Source: Escherichia coli
Lineage (GTDB): Bacteria; Pseudomonadota; Gammaproteobacteria; Enterobacterales; Enterobacteriaceae
Direction: 5' to 3' (one strand)
Assembly (NCBI RefSeq): GCF_041248615.1
Contig: NZ_CP158426.1
DNA length: 64,000 bases
This document shows, piece after piece, positions 1-50,302 of the stretch. The first letter of the stretch is position 1. Each line of letters opens with the position of its first letter. A program made the translations under genes and the position numbers. Below the pieces are notes generated by a model. The model had not been told where the DNA came from. It made no database searches and saw only the letters and a program-made list of their open reading frames with translations.

Positions 1-235
1 ACACAATAAACGGTTTATGGGCGAACTGGCTGATGTTTTGCGCCAGCAACACGCCATCCAGCGACGGAATATTGATATCCAGAAAAATGGCGTCGACGCG
101 GTTATGCTGCAAAAACTTCAACACGTCCAGACCGTCGTCAAAGGTGCCGACAATCTCCATCTGGCTGTGCTCTTTAATTAGCCAGCTCAGTTCCTGTTGT
201 GCCAGGAATTCGTCTTCAACAATGATGACTTTCAC
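1..235 (-). CDS. ypdB: LytTR-family two-component response regulator, N-terminal receiver domain only (3' end runs off the window)
   Basis: Minus-strand frame from GTG at 233-235 reads VKVIIVEDEFLAQQELSWLIKEHSQMEIVGTFDDGLDVLKFLQHNRVDAIFLDINIPSLDG; GGAG Shine-Dalgarno upstream; starts 14 bp after the ypdA stop. Too short for the six-frame track in this frame. Confidence 0.85.
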   Translation of the reverse strand, partial: MKVIIVEDEFLAQQELSWLIKEHSQMEIVGTFDDGLDVLKFLQHNRVDAIFLDINIPSLDGVLLAQNISQFAHKPFIV

Positions 236-249
236 AATATCACTCCGGC

Positions 250-1947
250 TCAAAGCAATAACGTAGCCTGTGAGGCGACTGGGGTGCGTTGGTTAGGAAT
301 GTAAAACGCAATTTCCGTCCCCGGTTCCAGGCGGCGGATATGCAGCCCCTCGCCATACAATAACTTCACGCGATGATGGACATTCAGCAGGCCAATTTTA
401 TTGCCCGGCATTTCGTTCGCTTCGACCCGCTCAATCACCTTTGGATCGATGCCGTGCCCGGTATCTCGCACCGCAATACGTACCCGATTACCGCACTCTG
501 CAACGCTGATGGTGACAACGCCTTTACCTTTGCAAGGCTGGATACCGTGGACAATGGCGTTTTCCACCAACGGCTGGATCAGCAGGCTGGGAATGCAGCA
601 ATTCACCTCTTCATCAATATCATAGATAACCGTCAGCTTGTCGCCAAAGCGGGCCTGCTCAATGGCAATATAGTCTTTAATTTGATACAGCTCTTTTTTG
701 ATATCGATTTGCTCATCGTCTTTTAATTCAATGTTATAGCGCAGATAACGCGACAGATTAAAGATCAGCTGGCGAGCGGTATCCGGATTCAGACGGATTG
801 ACGATGAAATAGCGTTCAAAGCGTTAAACAGGAAATGGGGATTAATTTTGCTTTGCAGGGCGCGAAGCTCTGCCTTATTTGCCATTTCACGTAGCTGCTC
901 GGCGCGTGAAACCTCCAGTTGCGTGGAGATGATTTGCGACAGACCGACCGCCATTTCCTGTAATGATGACGTAATCTGATGCGCGTGGCAGTAGTAAATT
1001 TTCAGTGTTCCGGTCACAACGCCTTTCTCCCACAATGGGATCACCAGCATGGAATGAATCTCTGGTGTGCGGTGGGCTTCATCATTGTTTTTAATGATGA
1101 TTTTTCCGTAATTCATCGCCTGTCGGGTAGTCGGGCTAATGAAGTCATCGCCATTCTGATAGTTGTGTTCACCCACGCCAACATAGGCCAGCACATGATC
1201 GGTATTGGTAATCGCCACCGCATCGGCATGAATATCATCGCGGATAATTTCACAAACTTTGCGTAATGACTCGCTATTGACATGGCGAAACAGCGGCAGC
1301 GTTTTGTTGGCGATATCCAGCGCCAGCTTGGCCTGCCGCGCGGCGCTGGCCTCTTTTTCGCCCTCAACGCTTTGCACCAGCAGCACAATAAAGCCGATAC
1401 AGACGCTACCGAGGATCATTGGAATCCCGATTTTAGAGACGATATCGATCCCCAATGCGGTAGTTGGTGCCCAGACAATCACCAGAATCATGGTCAACGT
1501 TTCACACAACATGCCGCCGAGAATACCGACGCGCCAGCGCTGTGCTTTGGGGATTTTCAGGTTGATCCAGCCCGATATACAACCCGCCAGAATGCTGGTG
1601 ATAAAGCAGGGGATTGCCGTCACGCCGCCGATATCAATTAAATAACGGTGAATACCTGCGATCACGCCGGTAATAATGCCTACCCACGGGCCAAACAGAA
1701 TCCCGCCTGACATCACCGCGATAATACGAACGTTCACCAGCGAGCCTTCTACGGGAACGCCGGACCAGGTGCTGAACAGGGCGAACAGCGAGAAAATGGC
1801 GGTAACAGCGAGCAGCTCTTTTGGGGAGTGCGCCGACTTGTGCAACAGTTCGCGAAACAGGCGGATACGGATGAGAAAGAACAGGCAGATAAGCATTAAC
1901 GCTGCCCGATCGAAGACCGCCAGCAGCATGTTGAATATTTCGTGCAC
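250..1947 (-). CDS. ypdA: LytS-family sensor histidine kinase (565 aa)
   Basis: 565-aa ORF with multi-pass membrane N-terminus, GAF-like middle and His-kinase C-terminus; immediately upstream of ypdB. Confidence 0.93.
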
Positions 1948-2323
1948 GGGTGACTCTGAATAAGGATTAAACCTCTATGATAGGTAACCTGAAGGCTGAT
2001 GACCAGCAGGCCGTTTTTGAGGAAAAACCACAATTTTAAAAGGGGATTGAAAGATAAATGGTGTATTAGCAATGCATCTCTTGATAATGCACATCTGCTT
2101 GGTAAATTTATTGAAATTATAATGTTAATAAAATGAGTGGTAATTTTCTTGTTAGCGCAGATAAATTTCCTGTTTTTGAAGTGGAGTTCCTCATTTAAAG
2201 CGATTGATAAAAATGTTCTAAAACGCTGGACAGACAGAAATTAATCAGGCTATTTTCAAAACAGCCACCATCGTGGCAGCGTCGCTCGGACGGTCCGGGC
2301 GCTAACGTTAATCTGAGGAAATT

Positions 2324-3562
2324 ATGGCTGACACTCGCCCTGAACGTCGCTTTACGCGCATTGATCGTCTCCCGCCCTACGTTTTTAATATTACCGCTGA
2401 ACTGAAAATGGCTGCGCGTCGGCGCGGCGAAGATATTATCGATTTCAGTATGGGTAACCCGGACGGTGCGACTCCGCCGCACATCGTCGAAAAATTATGT
2501 ACTGTGGCCCAGCGCCCGGACACGCATGGTTACTCCACGTCACGCGGCATTCCGCGGCTACGTCGCGCCATTTCCCGCTGGTATCAGGATCGCTACGACG
2601 TTGAAATCGACCCGGAATCAGAAGCCATCGTCACTATTGGTTCGAAAGAGGGACTGGCGCATCTGATGCTGGCGACGCTGGATCATGGTGACACGGTGCT
2701 GGTGCCTAATCCAAGCTACCCCATTCATATTTATGGCGCGGTGATTGCAGGGGCGCAGGTACGCTCAGTGCCGCTGGTGGAAGGTGTCGATTTCTTCAAC
2801 GAACTGGAACGCGCCATTCGCGAAAGTTATCCGAAACCGAAGATGATGATCCTCGGCTTCCCGTCGAACCCAACCGCGCAATGCGTGGAACTGGAATTCT
2901 TTGAGAAGGTTGTGGCGCTGGCAAAACGCTACGATGTGCTGGTGGTCCATGACCTGGCCTATGCCGATATCGTCTACGATGGCTGGAAAGCGCCGTCAAT
3001 CATGCAGGTGCCGGGCGCACGCGACGTGGCGGTCGAGTTCTTTACCCTGTCGAAAAGTTACAACATGGCGGGCTGGCGTATCGGCTTTATGGTTGGCAAC
3101 AAAACGCTGGTCAGCGCGTTGGCACGTATTAAAAGCTATCACGATTACGGCACCTTTACGCCGTTGCAGGTGGCAGCGATTGCGGCGCTGGAGGGCGATC
3201 AACAGTGCGTGCGCGACATTGCTGAACAGTACAAACGCCGCCGTGATGTACTGGTAAAAGGGCTGCATGAAGCGGGCTGGATGGTCGAAATGCCGAAGGC
3301 TTCGATGTATGTCTGGGCGAAAATCCCGGAACCGTATGCTGCCATGGGCTCGCTGGAATTTGCCAAGAAGCTGCTGAACGAAGCGAAGGTCTGTGTCTCT
3401 CCGGGGATTGGCTTTGGCGACTACGGCGACACGCATGTTCGCTTTGCACTGATTGAAAACCGCGACCGTATTCGTCAGGCGATTCGTGGAATTAAAGCGA
3501 TGTTCCGTGCCGACAGTTTACTACCCGCCAGCAGCAAACATATTCACGAAAACGCGGAATAA
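2324..3562 (+). CDS. alaC: glutamate-pyruvate aminotransferase AlaC (412 aa)
   Basis: 412-aa [24 protein letters not shown] with class I aminotransferase fold; GAGG Shine-Dalgarno upstream of the ATG. Confidence 0.95.
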
Positions 3563-3581
3563 ACACCATCGCCAGAAATGC

Positions 3582-3610
3582 AAACAGGAGCCAGATGGCT
3601 CCTGTTTTTC
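3582..3610. terminator. intrinsic terminator after alaC, plausibly bidirectional (also downstream of ypdK)
   Basis: Stem caggagcc/ggctcctg with 4-nt loop followed by TTTTT, 20 bp after the alaC stop. Confidence 0.75.
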
Positions 3611-3626
3611 ATTGCACAGTTTGCTT

Positions 3627-3698
3627 TTAGATCATCAGGGCAAAAGTACCGGCCCAAACGATGACCATAAAAGAAATGCCCATAAAGAAATATTTCAC
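3627..3698 (-). CDS. ypdK: 23-aa hydrophobic small membrane protein
   Basis: Minus-strand GTG at 3696-3698 with GGAGAG 8 nt upstream; translation (M)KYFFMGISFMVIVWAGTFALMI then TAA; matches the K-12 small protein YpdK as I recall it. Confidence 0.7.
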   Translation of the reverse strand: MKYFFMGISFMVIVWAGTFALMI

Positions 3699-4052
3699 TT
3701 TACATCTCTCCGCGTAATTACTGTTACGCCTGAATGACTTCATTACACCTGATACAGTGAGTTGACACCGGGCAAAACGACCTTAAAAGTCCTGTATTTT
3801 ACCGTGGGCATCACCCCAGAATTCTGAGCTAAACTGCTCCAGACGGCGCTAATGTACGCCTAAAACTGAAACGAGACAAGAGGCATTTTCTTATTTACTT
3901 TTAGTAACTTACAGGTGTCTCATATCGGCGACAGTTTAATTTCTGACGGTAATAATTAGAGATTCAGCGAAGGAAAAAACTTAAGAAAAAAGCCATAAAA
4001 ACCATGAGGTTATTATGGCTGATTTGAGGAGGGAAAGAGTAAGAGCAGTTTG

Positions 4053-4973
4053 TTAAATGTATAGCGACGATTCTCCCACCGGGCGCGTTTTAAAGCGACG
4101 GTGGATCCAGAGGTACTGCTCCGGTGCGCGCATGATCTCTTTTTCGATAATCTTGTTCATATAGGCAGCGGCTTGATTTTCATCTGCCGGGTAGCCTTCC
4201 ATCTCTGGGGTGATGTACAAACGATATCCGCTGTAATCCGCTTTTCTTACCATCGTTACGGTTAACATGGCTGCGCCAGAGAGACGTGAAAGGACATACG
4301 TACCATTGGTTGTGGCGACATTTTCCACCGCAAAGAACGGCGCGAAGGAGCTGCCTTTACGACCATAATCCTGATCGGGAGCAAACCATACCGCTTCACC
4401 TTTCTTCAGTGCACCGACAATGCCGCGCAGATTATTTCTGCCGATCATCGCTTTGTTAGAGCGCATGCGCCCACGGGTCTGCACCCATTCCATCAGCTGA
4501 TTATTATGTGGACGATAGGTAGCCATCATTGGTTGGCACAGTCCCATCACGCGGCCGCCCAGTTCCAGCGACATAAAATGGACGCCGACAACCATTACGC
4601 CGCGATTTTGCATTTGTGCGCGTTTAAGGTTATCCAACCCTTCAACATCAAACCATTTACGTACGCGACTGTCGGGCCAGAACCACGCCATGCCGGTTTC
4701 TACCAGCGCCATGCCGAGTGAACGAAAGTTTTCGGCAATCATCTTCTCGCGTTCTTCCGCAGAATGCTGTGGGAAACAAAGTTCCAGGTTTTTACGGGCG
4801 ATAGATTCACGCCGTTTCAGGAATGGTCGCGCCATTGCGCCAATACGCGTGCCGAGAAAGCAGAGAACAGGATAAGGAAGCTGTACCCAAAGCCAGAGTA
4901 CACCAAGCCCAAACCACGTGAGCCAGTAGCGAGGATGCAGAAACTCGCGGGAAAATTTGCATTTTGGAAACAT
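4053..4973 (-). CDS. lpxP: lipid A palmitoleoyl-ACP acyltransferase (cold-induced), 306 aa
   Basis: ORF 4053-5039; product begins MFPKCKFSREFLHPRYWLTWFGLG at the internal ATG (4971-4973), matching the LpxP/LpxL family; the longer upstream start is rejected. Confidence 0.9.
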   Translation of the reverse strand: MFPKCKFSREFLHPRYWLTWFGLGVLWLWVQLPYPVLCFLGTRIGAMARPFLKRRESIARKNLELCFPQHSAEEREKMIAENFRSLGMALVETGMAWFWPDSRVRKWFDVEGLDNLKRAQMQNRGVMVVGVHFMSLELGGRVMGLCQPMMATYRPHNNQLMEWVQTRGRMRSNKAMIGRNNLRGIVGALKKGEAVWFAPDQDYGRKGSSFAPFFAVENVATTNGTYVLSRLSGAAMLTVTMVRKADYSGYRLYITPEMEGYPADENQAAAYMNKIIEKEIMRAPEQYLWIHRRFKTRPVGESSLYI

Positions 4974-5325
4974 AGTTACCTTCTGTAGATACGAATTGTT
5001 GTATCGCAGAAGATTCCATGTCGACAGCGGTACACTCAATTGATTAGGCCATCATGTACGACAATGGTTCCTGTAAAGAGTGTAAAGACTAGTCAGGACA
5101 TAACCACGAGGAGCATGAATGCGGTATCTGTACTTTATCACTCGCTGACTGCTTTCAGCTACTGATTATTAATCGTGCAAAGTAAATATTTTTCCGTACG
5201 CAACAGTCTTGCATTTAACATGCTGTTTTCATTGATGCTTAGCAAAAATTGCCAGAGGTTAAGGATTGTCTTACTATTAAAGTGACTGAAGTTACAGGTT
5301 TTTTAGCGCGGCAGGAGGTTGAGCT

Positions 5326-5568
5326 ATGATTTATTTATGGATGTTTCTCGCCCTGTGTATTGTCTGCGTAAGCGGATACATCGGTCAGGTACTGAACGTG
5401 GTATCGGCGGTCTCTTCTTTCTTCGGCATGGTGATCCTCGCTGCACTCATTTATTACTTCACCATGTGGTTAACTGGCGGTAATGAACTGGTGACGGGGA
5501 TATTTATGTTTCTTGCCCCGGCTTGTGGCTTGATGATTCGCTTTATGGTGGGATATGGCAGGCGGTAG
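5326..5568 (+). CDS. yfdY: 80-aa small membrane protein YfdY
   Basis: 80-aa ORF with two predicted TM helices; GGAGG Shine-Dalgarno (5310-5314) upstream; position between lpxP and ypdI as in K-12. Confidence 0.8.
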   Translation: MIYLWMFLALCIVCVSGYIGQVLNVVSAVSSFFGMVILAALIYYFTMWLTGGNELVTGIFMFLAPACGLMIRFMVGYGRR

Positions 5569-5644
5569 TGGGTCAGGATGGCTCATTTGGGCAGGTGTTC
5601 ACATCAGCATCAGACATGATTGTTCACCTGCCGTGTGACAGACG

Positions 5645-5877
5645 CTATCGCACAGGATGGATAAGATAATTCGCCTTTGTCGGAAAAGGGGGCGGAATTT
5701 CTTCTGTGAGGTTTAATGGTGGCGCATCTTCTCTCATTTTTAACAAAATCGCCTGTGATGGCTGAAATTTTGTAGAGTGAGTTGTCGTCATCGCTGACGT
5801 TTTTTCCGTCTCTTTATAGCTCGTCTCACTTCCACCACCAGAAATGGAAAATGCAAAAACATTGCATGCCATAATAG
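5645..5877 (-). pseudogene. ypdI: ypdI lipoprotein gene remnant, 5' end and promoter removed at the IS1 boundary
   Basis: Minus-strand ORF encodes ...MACNVFAFSISGGGSE... with the candidate lipobox Cys at residue 3 of the remaining frame, so a signal peptide is missing; frame runs directly into the IS1 left end at 5878. Confidence 0.6.
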
Positions 5878-5932
5878 GGTGATGCTGCCAACTTACTGAT
5901 TTAGTGTATGATGGTGTTTTTGAGGTGCTCCA

Positions 5933-6208
5933 GTGGCTTCTGTTTCTATCAGCTGTCCCTCCTGTTCAGCTACTGACGGGGTGGTGCGTAACGGCAAAAG
6001 CACCGCCGGACATCAGCGCTATCTCTGCTCTCACTGCCGTAAAACATGGCAACTGCAGTTCACTTACACCGCTTCTCAACCCGGTACGCACCAGAAAATC
6101 ATTGATATGGCCATGAATGGCGTTGGATGCCGGGCAACCGCCCGCATTATGGGCGTTGGCCTCAACACGATTTTCCGCCATTTAAAAAACTCAGGCCGCA
6201 GTCGGTAA
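5933..6208 (+). CDS. insA: IS1 InsA (91 aa, transposition repressor / N-terminal part of the transposase)
   Basis: [43 protein letters not shown] with zinc-finger cysteines. Confidence 0.97.
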
Positions 6209-6630
6209 CCTCGCGCATACAGCCGGGCAGTGACGTCATCGTCTGCGCGGAAATGGACGAACAGTGGGGATACGTCGGGGCTAAATCGCGCCAGCGCTGG
6301 CTGTTTTACGCGTATGACAGGCTCCGGAAGACGGTTGTTGCGCACGTATTCGGTGAACGCACTATGGCGACGCTGGGGCGTCTTATGAGCCTGCTGTCAC
6401 CCTTTGACGTGGTGATATGGATGACGGATGGCTGGCCGCTGTATGAATCCCGCCTGAAGGGAAAGCTGCACGTAATCAGCAAGCGATATACGCAGCGAAT
6501 TGAGCGGCATAACCTGAATCTGAGGCAGCACCTGGCACGGCTGGGACGGAAGTCGCTGTCGTTCTCAAAATCGGTGGAGCTGCATGACAAAGTCATCGGG
6601 CATTATCTGAACATAAAACACTATCAATAA
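6127..6630 (+). CDS. insB: IS1 InsB frame (transposase C-terminal part; InsAB' is made by -1 frameshift)
   Basis: 167-aa ORF in the -1 frame overlapping the insA 3' end; slippery AAAAAAC at 6184-6190. Confidence 0.95.
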
Positions 6631-6645
6631 GTTGGAGTCATTACC

Positions 6646-30134: not shown

Positions 30135-30152
30135 GATCAGGTCAGACCACTT
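30135..30152. promoter_or_regulatory. FadR operator in the fadIJ promoter
   Basis: GATCAGGTCAGACCACTT about 30 bp upstream of the fadI start. Confidence 0.6.
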
Positions 30153-39055: not shown

Positions 39056-39562
39056 ATGAAAGGATCTTGTTCTGTCTGGGCGGTAACTGGGTTACTGATA
39101 TGTTGTGTTGGTAGCGGCTTTGCAGTTGCAGCGAGTAAGTCAGTAAGTATGAATTTACGGGTACTTGTTGATGCCCCTCCTCCTTGTACGGTAAATGGTG
39201 CGGCAGTTGAGTTTGGTAATGTATTCATTAATAAGATCGATGGGGTGAGTTATAACCGTCCCATTGACTACTCGCTTGTTTGCAACAATTTGGCAATGGA
39301 TGACTTGCGTTTACAGATGCAGGCGACAACGGTCGTGATTAACGGTGAAACAGTTATCAGCACAGGTATTCCAGGGTTTGGTATTCGGGTTCAAAAAAGT
39401 AGTGATCACTCAATACTCGACTTAACGTCTGGTTCATGGTTGCCGTTTAATTTTTCCTCGGGCATCCCTGCACTTGAAGCCGTGCCGGTGAAACAGAGTG
39501 GTACAACCTTAGCGGCAGCGGAATTTAACGCCAGCGCCACAATTGTGGTGGATTATCAATGA
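39056..39562 (+). CDS. yfcR: fimbrial-like minor subunit
   Basis: Start placed at ATG 39056 (GGGAGAG Shine-Dalgarno, MKGSCSVWAVTGLLICCVGSGFAVA signal peptide); the longer ORF from 38948 overlapping yfcS is rejected; C-terminal VVDYQ. Confidence 0.8.
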   Translation: MKGSCSVWAVTGLLICCVGSGFAVAASKSVSMNLRVLVDAPPPCTVNGAAVEFGNVFINKIDGVSYNRPIDYSLVCNNLAMDDLRLQMQATTVVINGETVISTGIPGFGIRVQKSSDHSILDLTSGSWLPFNFSSGIPALEAVPVKQSGTTLAAAEFNASATIVVDYQ

Positions 39563-40029
39563 AACGGATCTCACTTCTTGTGCTGTGGGGCTTTTGCTCG
39601 ATGGCACTCTCAAATGTCTCTTTTCACGGCTATTTAGTGCAGCCGCCTAACTGCACTATTAGCAACGCTCAAACCATAGAAATCACCTTTCAGGATGTGT
39701 TTGTTGATGACATTAATGGCAGTAATTATGAGCAAACGGTGCCGTATTCAATTACCTGTGATACGGCGGTTCGCGACCCATCAATGGAAATGACCTTGAG
39801 CTGGAGTGGCACACAAAGCGATTTTGATGATGCCGCAGTAAGCAGCAATATCACTGGATTAGGTATTCAGCTTAAACAGGCTGGGCAGCGTTTTAGGATC
39901 AATACGCCACTCGTGGTGAATGAAACCGATTTACCGGTGTTAACGGCTGTGCCAGTAAAAAAGAGTGGTGTTGATCTGCCTGAGGCGGACTTTGAAGCCT
40001 GGGCCACGTTACAGGTGGATTATCAATGA
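39559..40029 (+). CDS. yfcQ: fimbrial-like minor subunit
   Basis: ATGA overlap with the yfcR stop; signal peptide; C-terminal QVDYQ. Confidence 0.85.
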   Translation: MKRISLLVLWGFCSMALSNVSFHGYLVQPPNCTISNAQTIEITFQDVFVDDINGSNYEQTVPYSITCDTAVRDPSMEMTLSWSGTQSDFDDAAVSSNITGLGIQLKQAGQRFRINTPLVVNETDLPVLTAVPVKKSGVDLPEADFEAWATLQVDYQ

Positions 40030-40550
40030 AGAAAAAGTGTGCGTTGATTTTTATCAATAGCCTACTGTTGCTGAACAGCGGCACCACAACAGCGGTAGAT
40101 AATCTGCACTTTACCGGCAATTTAATCAGTAAATCGTGTACACCAGTGATCAACGGTAGCCAGTTGGCAGAGGTACATTTTACTGCCATTGCCGCCAGCG
40201 ATTTAATGAACATTGGGCAGTCAGAGCGAGTGCCGTTGGTCATTCAATTGAAGGATTGTCAAAGTTCTACATCGCTGAGTGTCAGAGTCACGTTAACGGG
40301 AACAGAAGATAGTGAACTGCCCGGATTTCTGGCTTTTGACGCCTCGTCTTCTGCGTCCGGCGCTGGGATTGGAATTGAAACAGCGGCAGGTATACCAGTG
40401 CCAGTCAACAATACAACAGGCGTCACGCTCCCGCTGACTCAGGGAAATAACAGCCTAAATTTTAATGCCTGGTTACAGGCGAAGAGCGGGCGAAATGTAA
40501 CGTCCGGTGACTTTAACGCCACTGTGACGGCAACCTTTGAGTATTTATAA
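40026..40550 (+). CDS. yfcP: fimbrial-like minor subunit
   Basis: ATGA overlap with the yfcQ stop; signal peptide; C-terminal TFEYL. Confidence 0.85.
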   Translation: MKKKCALIFINSLLLLNSGTTTAVDNLHFTGNLISKSCTPVINGSQLAEVHFTAIAASDLMNIGQSERVPLVIQLKDCQSSTSLSVRVTLTGTEDSELPGFLAFDASSSASGAGIGIETAAGIPVPVNNTTGVTLPLTQGNNSLNFNAWLQAKSGRNVTSGDFNATVTATFEYL

Positions 40551-40551
40551 C

Positions 40552-41406
40552 ATGAAAAAATGGACCCTATTTTTCGCGAGCCTGATGCTGCTTGTCCTGA
40601 ATGTTGTCGGCACACCCAGGAGCTATGCTGGGGATAAACTTATGAGTTCAAGTTTCGACAGTGTGAGAGTTTATTATGCGATGGACACGGTAACAGGGGT
40701 GGCCGCGAGTATCGTTTTCAATGTTACGGTGTTAACACCAGGGGAGGTCGCGTATGGGAAATATAATTCTATTGGGCGTAAAGGAGATACTCTGAGGCTG
40801 ATTTCCTGGACGGGTTCGGGCCCGGCACCAACTCTGGTTATAACGGATTATGATACGATTAATAATTCACATTGCCCCGGTATTGATACGGATCTTTTCC
40901 GTTGTGCATATATGACATTTAAAGTCACCGTTGCATCTGATAATTATGGTTGCCCGTGGATCGCGTCCTTTTATTCATATACAAACTTACCCGGATATTT
41001 TGATGGAAGCTACACGAGCCCGACTGTGCATAACTCAATATGCCCAACGATACCGGTCGCCTCCTATGATATCTCCTGGAGTGAAAATTATGTCAGTCAT
41101 AATAAAGCGCTACAGCTACAGTCCACGGGGTCGACAATTACCACCACGCTTTCGACCTACCTGATGGAAAACGGCAAACTCTGTGACGGCAGCGTTTTTG
41201 ATAGTAGAGGTGCATACTGCCGTGCGGTATCAGAACTGTTAACCTTTACCTCTTATGGCTGCGACAAATCAACGGTAACGGTGACCCCCACACGTCATCC
41301 GGTAACCGATAAAGAGTTACATGATATCGTGGTGAAGGTGAATACCAGCAGTCGGCAACCGATTGATTCTACGTGTCGTTTTCAGTATGTATTGAATGAG
41401 TTATAG
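40552..41406 (+). CDS. yfcO: putative fimbrial tip adhesin-like protein
   Basis: ORF 40537-41406; start placed at MKKWTLFFASLMLLVLNVVG (signal peptide); last gene of the operon. Confidence 0.75.
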   Translation: MKKWTLFFASLMLLVLNVVGTPRSYAGDKLMSSSFDSVRVYYAMDTVTGVAASIVFNVTVLTPGEVAYGKYNSIGRKGDTLRLISWTGSGPAPTLVITDYDTINNSHCPGIDTDLFRCAYMTFKVTVASDNYGCPWIASFYSYTNLPGYFDGSYTSPTVHNSICPTIPVASYDISWSENYVSHNKALQLQSTGSTITTTLSTYLMENGKLCDGSVFDSRGAYCRAVSELLTFTSYGCDKSTVTVTPTRHPVTDKELHDIVVKVNTSSRQPIDSTCRFQYVLNEL

Positions 41407-41419
41407 CTCGTCGTTGTGC

Positions 41420-41520
41420 ACTGATGCCTGATGTGACGCCGACTGAAATGAATCACAATTTATTGAATTATCACATTTTTATCGGCCGGATAAGGCATTC
41501 ACGCCGCATCCGGCATTCGA
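41420..41520. repeat. REP/BIME repetitive extragenic palindromes
   Basis: GCCTGATGTGACGCC and GCCGGATAAGGCATTCACGCCGCATCCGGC. Confidence 0.8.
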
Positions 41521-46916: not shown

Positions 46917-48989
<2,073 letters not shown>

Positions 48990-48998
48990 CTATTAATT

Positions 48999-49034
48999 GG
49001 CTGATCGGACTTGTTCGGCGTACAAGTGTACGCT
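48999..49034. promoter_or_regulatory. fabB promoter operators: FadR site (CTGATCGGACTTGTTCG) next to the FabR palindrome (GCGTACAAGTGTACGCT)
   Basis: GGCTGATCGGACTTGTTCGGCGTACAAGTGTACGCT about 50 bp upstream of the fabB ATG. Confidence 0.7.
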
Positions 49035-49081
49035 ATTGTGCATTCGAAACTTACTCTATGTGCGACTTACAGAGGTATTGA

Positions 49082-50302
49082 ATGAAACGTGCAGTGATTA
49101 CTGGCCTGGGCATTGTTTCCAGCATCGGTAATAACCAGCAGGAAGTCCTGGCATCTCTGCGTGAAGGACGTTCAGGGATCACTTTCTCTCAGGAGCTGAA
49201 GGATTCCGGCATGCGTAGCCACGTCTGGGGCAACGTAAAACTGGATACCACTGGCCTCATTGACCGCAAAGTTGTGCGCTTTATGAGCGACGCATCCATT
49301 TATGCATTCCTTTCTATGGAGCAGGCAATTGCAGATGCTGGCCTCTCCCCGGAAGCTTACCAGAATAACCCGCGCGTTGGCCTGATTGCAGGTTCCGGCG
49401 GCGGTTCCCCGCGTTTTCAGGTGTTCGGCGCTGACGCAATGCGCGGCCCGCGCGGCCTGAAAGCGGTAGGCCCGTATGTGGTCACCAAAGCGATGGCATC
49501 CGGCGTTTCTGCCTGCCTCGCCACGCCGTTTAAGATTCACGGCGTTAACTACTCCATCAGCTCCGCATGTGCGACTTCCGCGCACTGTATCGGTAACGCA
49601 GTAGAGCAGATCCAACTGGGCAAACAGGACATCGTGTTTGCTGGTGGCGGCGAAGAGCTGTGCTGGGAAATGGCTTGTGAATTCGACGCGATGGGTGCGC
49701 TGTCTACCAAATACAACGACACCCCGGAAAAAGCCTCCCGTACTTATGACGCTCACCGAGACGGTTTCGTTATCGCTGGCGGCGGCGGTATGGTGGTGGT
49801 CGAAGAACTGGAACACGCGTTGGCACGTGGTGCTCATATCTACGCTGAAATCGTTGGCTACGGCGCAACGTCTGATGGCGCAGACATGGTTGCTCCGTCT
49901 GGCGAAGGCGCAGTGCGTTGCATGAAGATGGCGATGCACGGTGTTGATACCCCAATCGACTACCTGAACTCCCACGGTACTTCGACTCCGGTTGGCGACG
50001 TGAAAGAGCTGGCGGCTATCCGTGAAGTGTTCGGCGATAAGAGCCCGGCGATTTCTGCAACCAAAGCAATGACCGGTCACTCTCTGGGCGCTGCTGGCGT
50101 ACAGGAAGCTATCTACTCTCTGCTGATGCTGGAACACGGCTTTATCGCCCCGAGCATCAACATTGAAGAGCTGGACGAGCAGGCTGCGGGTCTGAACATC
50201 GTGACCGAAACGACCGATCGCGAACTGACCACCGTTATGTCTAACAGCTTCGGCTTCGGCGGCACCAACGCCACGCTGGTAATGCGCAAGCTGAAAGATT
50301 AA
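49082..50302 (+). CDS. fabB: 3-oxoacyl-ACP synthase I, FabB (406 aa)
   Basis: [22 protein letters not shown]...; active-site Cys in SSACATSAH and C-terminal [10 protein letters not shown]. Confidence 0.97.

Follow-up and report, generated by a model that had tools for sequence, protein, structure and literature searches.

The closest described system is the fabB promoter of Escherichia coli K-12. Others have shown for K-12 that FadR and FabR both bind exactly the DNA considered here, in which direction each of them acts and where transcription starts. A 57-bp fabB EMSA probe, TCTATTAAATGGCTGATCGGACTTGTTCGGCGTACAAGTGTACGCTATTGTGCATTC, was printed with the FadR and FabR sites marked (PMC4537474; PMC4259882). 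Wild-type FadR shifts the fabB probe, whereas mutant FadR does not. FabR is known from ChIP and transcriptomics as a direct repressor of fabB in Salmonella.

The fabA promoter of E. coli has the same layout, with a FadR 17-mer and a FabR 18-mer, one base between them, and then a -10 beginning with TAT. It has 30 of 36 bases in common with the fabB element, and the FadR core CTGATCGGACTTGTT is identical to that of fabB at 15 of 15 positions. This is the motif comparison that the earlier note had named as a check of its reading, and its result agrees with that reading. However, the right palindrome arm of fabA is imperfect (TGTTAGC, compared with TGTACGC in fabB), the centre is CG rather than AG, and fabA has additional promoters (PMC7083825). 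When the 41-mer of fabB (48999-49039, both operators and the -10) is used for BLAST, the fabA promoter is the second match in essentially every E. coli genome.

The FadR repressor operators of the fad genes (fadL, fadI, fadBA and fadD) are bound by the same protein and have the same 17-bp architecture of the CTGGTC-nGA type. They differ in having a TGGT core and in working as repressor sites, placed on the promoter or downstream of it. At fabB, in contrast, the site has TGAT, a TTGTT right half and a position of about -40, where FadR activates. At fabA of Pseudomonas and Shewanella, FabR-related regulators of the TetR family (DesT/FabR) use a related palindrome, e.g. AGCTTACACGTGTTCGCT in Shewanella (PMC4537474; PMC3462791). 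However, Pseudomonas has no FadR and its repressor site lies upstream of that of the activator, and Shewanella has a FadR site at fabA and none at fabB (PMC3462791).

The 36-mer GGCTGATCGGACTTGTTCGGCGTACAAGTGTACGCT, as quoted in the earlier note, is found at 48999..49034 on the + strand of the 64-kb stretch of DNA that was analysed (the window). It sits within the 158-bp mnmC-fabB intergenic region of the E. coli chromosome and is separated by 47 nt from the downstream fabB ATG (Table 1). The gene neighbours, mnmC and fabB, have the same arrangement in the K-12 record. The window is identical to K-12 MG1655 from 48998 through the fabB start, including the 36-mer, the -10, the 5' UTR and the start codon. 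Only three intergenic SNPs distinguish it from K-12 MG1655 (48950, 48972 and 48997), and neither operator is affected. The SNP at 48997, 2 bp 5' of the FadR site, is also the sole mismatch to the 57-bp EMSA probe (56/57) and lies outside both marked sites. The FadR 17-mer matches the marked site at 17 of 17 positions and the FabR 18-mer matches the characterised fabB site at 18 of 18. Base for base, the operators of the window are the CHARACTERISED operators, in comparison both with K-12 MG1655 and with the published EMSA probes. Operator coordinates here are published motif boundaries, taken from later open-access papers, and not protected (footprinted) regions.

Table 1. Features of the mnmC-fabB region in window coordinates
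Feature	Position	Strand	Basis or remark
mnmC, GTG start	48923	minus	RefSeq annotation
Candidate divergent mnmC promoter: -35 TTGCGC (48983->48978), 17-nt spacer, -10 TAAGAT (48960->48955)	48955..48983	-	Conservation
Reported CpxR box; the window reads GTCAGgctgcGCAAA	48970-48984	+	K-12 position converted
FadR operator, 17 bp, GGCTGATCGGACTTGTT	48999..49015	+	About -46..-30 from the fabB start; mark in the published probe
Putative -35 hexamer TTGTTC, within the FadR site's right half	49011..49016	+	17-nt spacing to the -10 and published start
Single base C between the operators; also last base of the -35 hexamer	49016	+	Published boundaries
FabR operator, 18-bp palindrome GGCGTACAAGTGTACGCT	49017..49034	.	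About -28..-11; bold italic in the published probe (PMC4537474)
Putative -10 hexamer TATTGT	49034..49039	+	Ends 6 nt before the published start
fabB transcription start	49045, +/- 1-2 nt	+	Published start converted to window coordinates
Shine-Dalgarno-like AGAGG, 6 nt before the ATG	49071..49075	+	Read from the sequence
fabB CDS, beta-ketoacyl-ACP synthase I, 406 aa	49082..50302	+	ORF and RefSeq annotation of matching genomes

This DNA is the K-12 fabB promoter itself rather than a relative of it, and as such is already known. Since the DNA is identical to that of K-12, the K-12 mechanism can be assigned to it with high confidence. We are thus nearly certain that E. coli fabB has its dual-operator promoter at 48999..49034, activated by FadR and repressed by FabR. 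With this canonical control region intact, unsaturated fatty-acid synthesis should be regulated in this strain in the same way as in K-12. The earlier note had claimed a FadR-type site followed by a FabR palindrome in the fabB promoter, and the two sites are placed as it said and equal the published probes. Both are intact, again as claimed, in the sense that they are identical to K-12. The note had also suggested a search for differences from characterised operators at the contact positions, and there are none, although a sequence identical to the characterised one passes such a comparison trivially.

The word "overlapping", which the earlier note used for the two operators, should be given up. 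The motifs abut and are 1 bp apart, the separating base being C49016, and the literature has FabR "immediately downstream". This base is invariant in 80 of 80 species of Enterobacterales when the alignment is anchored on the FabR half-site.

The published transcription start of fabB is located 37 nt before the ATG (RACE; PMC7083825). From the sequence we infer that TTGTTC and TATTGT, separated by 17 nt, are the -35 and -10 of fabB. The -35 agrees with TTGACA at 3 of 6 positions only, and because of this the generic sigma-70 consensus scan of 48850-49150 reported no promoter. A -35 as weak as this fits an activator-dependent promoter. In the -10, nearly all of the 80 species have T, A and T at positions 1, 2 and 6 (80, 79 and 79 species, respectively), and positions 3-4 vary. 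Relative to these putative hexamers, the FadR site overlaps the -35, and the FabR site fills the -35/-10 spacer and reaches the first base of the -10. The placement of the FadR site is compatible with activation, as described for fabA, and that of the FabR site, over the spacer and the -10, is compatible with repression. In the fabA promoter FabR lies across the -10 and FadR across the -40 region (PMC3462791). Further downstream, the segment 49067-49081, which includes the Shine-Dalgarno-like stretch, is 77% conserved.

Within E. coli the region is nearly invariant. A 401-bp query round the site is matched with at least 95% identity in 5,425 of 5,426 complete genomes, where the flanking genes are annotated as fabB and mnmC. 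BLAST finds the 41-mer without a mismatch in 5,425 of the 5,426, which contrasts with the variation of up to 5% in the surrounding 401 bp. For a wider comparison, fabB loci were taken from 80 species-level genomes of Enterobacterales via the FabB protein, so that the motif was not presupposed. In 73 of the 80 species an ungapped match to the 36-mer, identical at 30 or more of its 36 positions, lies 40-61 nt ahead of the ATG. In a motif-free MAFFT alignment of the 80 species, mean identity to the window is 96.7% for the FadR core 49001-49015 and 93.6% for the FabR 18-mer. In the same terms, the operators have 0.93-0.97 identity and the flanks 0.615 (upstream intergenic) and 0.476 (5' UTR). This cross-species footprint confirms that the two-operator layout and its spacing are tightly held across Enterobacterales, and it adds detail to an established picture.

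One may ask whether this conservation reflects the core promoter elements only, that is the -35, the spacer and the -10, with no regulator binding, as the conserved block does run from the -35 to the -10. We regard this as extremely improbable. Conservation reaches 10 bp upstream of the -35, and the same 30 of 36 bases recur at fabA. Moreover, spacers of sigma-70 promoters are not conserved in sequence, whereas that of fabB hardly varies and is mirror-symmetric. This explanation is also contradicted by published EMSA and ChIP data, which show binding in vitro and in vivo.

Taken as a bare motif, the FadR half is a weak match to the fad-gene consensus. The FadR matrix was built in two variants, from EMSA-validated fad-gene operators only or from the same operators plus fabA. 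The fad-only matrix gives the fabB site a score of 11.2, which places it seventh in the window, and a random 64-kb sequence should contain about 4.5 sites that score as well or better. When fabA is added, the score rises to 17.1 and the site moves up to third place, with 0.09 such sites expected by chance. Motif statistics alone cannot establish the FadR half, and it is carried by its identity to the validated operator and by its conservation.

Other FadR sites are present in the window. Two tandem operators of fadL, AGCTGGTCCGACCTATA and CACTGGTCTGATTTCTA, lie at 29452-29468 and 29428-29444 on the minus strand; they are identical to the published EMSA probes and are the top two matches of the FadR matrix in the window. 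A further strong FadR-type site, AAGTGGTCTGACCTGAT, is located at 30136-30152 and precedes the fadI ATG (30179) by 27 nt. It is near-palindromic, scores on both strands and is presumably the fadIJ operator. The recovery of both fadL operators and the fadI site indicates that the FadR matrix works. The fadR and fabR genes themselves are outside the 64-kb window.

The left half of the FadR site, CTGATCGGAC, is kept in 73-77 of the 80 species (92-96%). Being upstream of the -35, it has no core-promoter role and is conserved nonetheless. Both this half across the 80 species and the 41-mer in E. coli show that purifying selection on the FadR half exceeds core-promoter needs.

In a few species the two halves have different fates. 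The FabR palindrome is kept and the left FadR half is lost in Rosenbergiella (two species, L045 and L056), Candidatus Schmidhempelia bombi (L073) and an Alkalimonas MAG (L082). In these loci, where fabB is at position 1201, the stretch concerned precedes it by about 40-100 nt. The first two of them retain TTGTTC as the -35 although they are without the left FadR half. In Edwardsiella (L069 and L071) the FadR and FabR sites are pushed apart by a 1-bp insertion (…GACTTGCCTCGGCGTACAGGTGTACGCT), and in the mealybug endosymbiont Candidatus Gullanella endobia (L076) both operators are degraded (TTATAATCAGACTTGTTTATCTTATGTTTTTAAACT). These exceptional species indicate that the two operator halves are separable modules.

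The loss of the FadR half in several lineages that retained FabR, together with the weak consensus match, could mean that the FadR site of fabB is present but physiologically minor, with FabR being effectively the sole regulator that matters. A review summarising Feng and Cronan 2011 points in the same direction, as it reports FabR as the dominant regulator of fabB and FadR as that of fabA. However, fabB expression is lowered 2-2.5-fold in a fadR mutant, and the left half is held across Enterobacterales at the level given above. We therefore consider a merely minor role of FadR unlikely and retain the reading of fabB as a promoter under the control of both regulators.

The FabR operator is formed by the arms GCGTACA and TGTACGC, which are perfect 7-bp inverted repeats round a non-symmetric AG centre, so that on the reverse strand the palindrome differs solely at the 2 central bases. 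The earlier note was right in identifying a near-palindrome typical of FabR; its extent, however, is 18 bp, with GCGTACA-AG-TGTACGC inside, and not the 12 bp of GTACAAGTGTAC that the note had given. The 16-bp palindrome core has no other occurrence within 3 mismatches in the 64-kb window.

The conservation of the FabR site is also mirror-symmetric and follows the pattern GC-K-TACA-nn-TGTA-M-GC in the 80 species. Inside the palindrome (49018-49033) only the dyad partners 49020/49031 and the centre 49025/49026 are variable. The other mirrored positions (49018-49019 and 49021-49024 with their partners) are 99-100% conserved and complementary. Mirror symmetry of this kind is the signature of a dimeric DNA-binding protein and not of a promoter spacer. 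The core ACAnnTGT, which was proposed from the FabR ChIP targets of Salmonella, is present as ACAAGTGT at 49022-49029; all 80 species share its ACA and TGT, and the two bases between them vary.

We also considered the palindrome as an RNA element or terminator and rejected this, as it is upstream of the transcription start and has no T-run. A terminator scan of 48850-49150 found none, and Rfam, run on the whole 64-kb window, found tRNA alone and thus nothing at the palindrome. In the whole window Rfam and ARAGORN detect a single RNA gene, tRNA-Arg(CCT) at 24080-24154.

According to the literature on K-12 and Salmonella, in which FadR is an activator of both fabA and fabB, the promoter would work as follows. 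The FadR dimer (GntR family) would bind the 17-bp site over the poor -35 and raise transcription about 2-fold. Imported fatty acids, in the form of long-chain acyl-CoA, would release FadR, and the activation would be lost, as is known for K-12. The FabR dimer (TetR family), bound to the 18-bp palindrome, would block RNA polymerase. Unsaturated acyl-ACP/CoA would strengthen the FabR repression and saturated acyl-ACP would relieve it, which is also known for K-12. With these opposite effects on FabR, which close a feedback loop, the level of FabB would track the saturated:unsaturated ratio of the acyl pool. The earlier note saw the role of the arrangement in balancing unsaturated fatty-acid synthesis, and the literature on opposing FadR/FabR control is in agreement with it.

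Steric occlusion as the mechanism of repression, and simultaneous occupancy of the promoter by FadR and FabR, are suggested by the geometry. From centre to centre the operators are separated by 18.5 bp, about 1.75 helical turns, so that the two dimers would presumably occupy different faces of the DNA. Alternatively, FabR might act mainly by anti-activation, displacing or neutralising FadR with mutually exclusive occupancy, and not by blocking RNA polymerase. Such exclusive occupancy is what the word "overlapping" in the earlier note would imply. The motifs are only one base apart and protein footprints usually exceed motifs, and the operator spacing is fixed in nearly all of the 80 species. 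However, repression of fabB by FabR persists in a fadR-null strain, so FadR is not required for it, which makes pure anti-activation unlikely. The palindrome also covers the spacer and the edge of the -10, a classic position for occlusion, and the FabR half is kept in species that lost the FadR half. The different helical faces, to which the spacing of the centres points, likewise speak against competition. On balance, anti-activation as the main mode of FabR action seems quite improbable to us, and we favour occlusion of RNA polymerase by FabR.

As to the operators themselves, the analysis brings nothing new, and any novelty is limited to the flanking DNA on the mnmC side. In K-12 a CpxR box of fabB, GTAAGgctgcGCAAA, was reported at -112..-98, with a DNase footprint at -119..-94 (PMC7083825). 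The SNP at 48972 (C vs A) gives GTCAG as the first CpxR half-site in the window, compared with GTAAG in K-12. Across Enterobacterales C is commoner than A at this position, and 1,581 of 5,425 E. coli genomes carry an exact copy of the window's 42-mer haplotype at the CpxR box. Between species the first half-site shows no conservation. The element GCAAATTT (48980-48987, about -65..-58 from the fabB start), which coincides with the second CpxR half-site plus ATTT, is as conserved in the 80 species as both operators.

The sequence TTGCGC, 17 nt and TAAGAT on the minus strand is the probable divergent promoter of mnmC, as its conservation suggests. Of 81 sequences, 77-80 share the TTGC of its -35, and the T, A, A and T of its -10 are present in 80, 79, 74 and 81, respectively. 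This candidate -35 also coincides with the second CpxR half-site. It is conceivable that CpxR control of fabB is lineage-specific, or that the GCAAATTT element couples the transcription of fabB and mnmC, but we hold this to be doubtful. In the reading frame of mnmC the ORF continues for 20 codons on the 5' side of the RefSeq GTG, up to a TTG at 48983. The conservation of 48924-48983 looks like that of promoter or 5' UTR blocks and not like that of coding sequence.

The 401 bp round the site are 100% identical to those of E. coli 2012C-4221. As a whole, the window is about 98-99% identical to this genome and not colinear with it. The window is without the IS621 (between yfcL and mnmC; about 46853) and IS1397 copies of E. 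coli 2012C-4221, and further differences from that genome are located at 1-6640 and 39061-41508.
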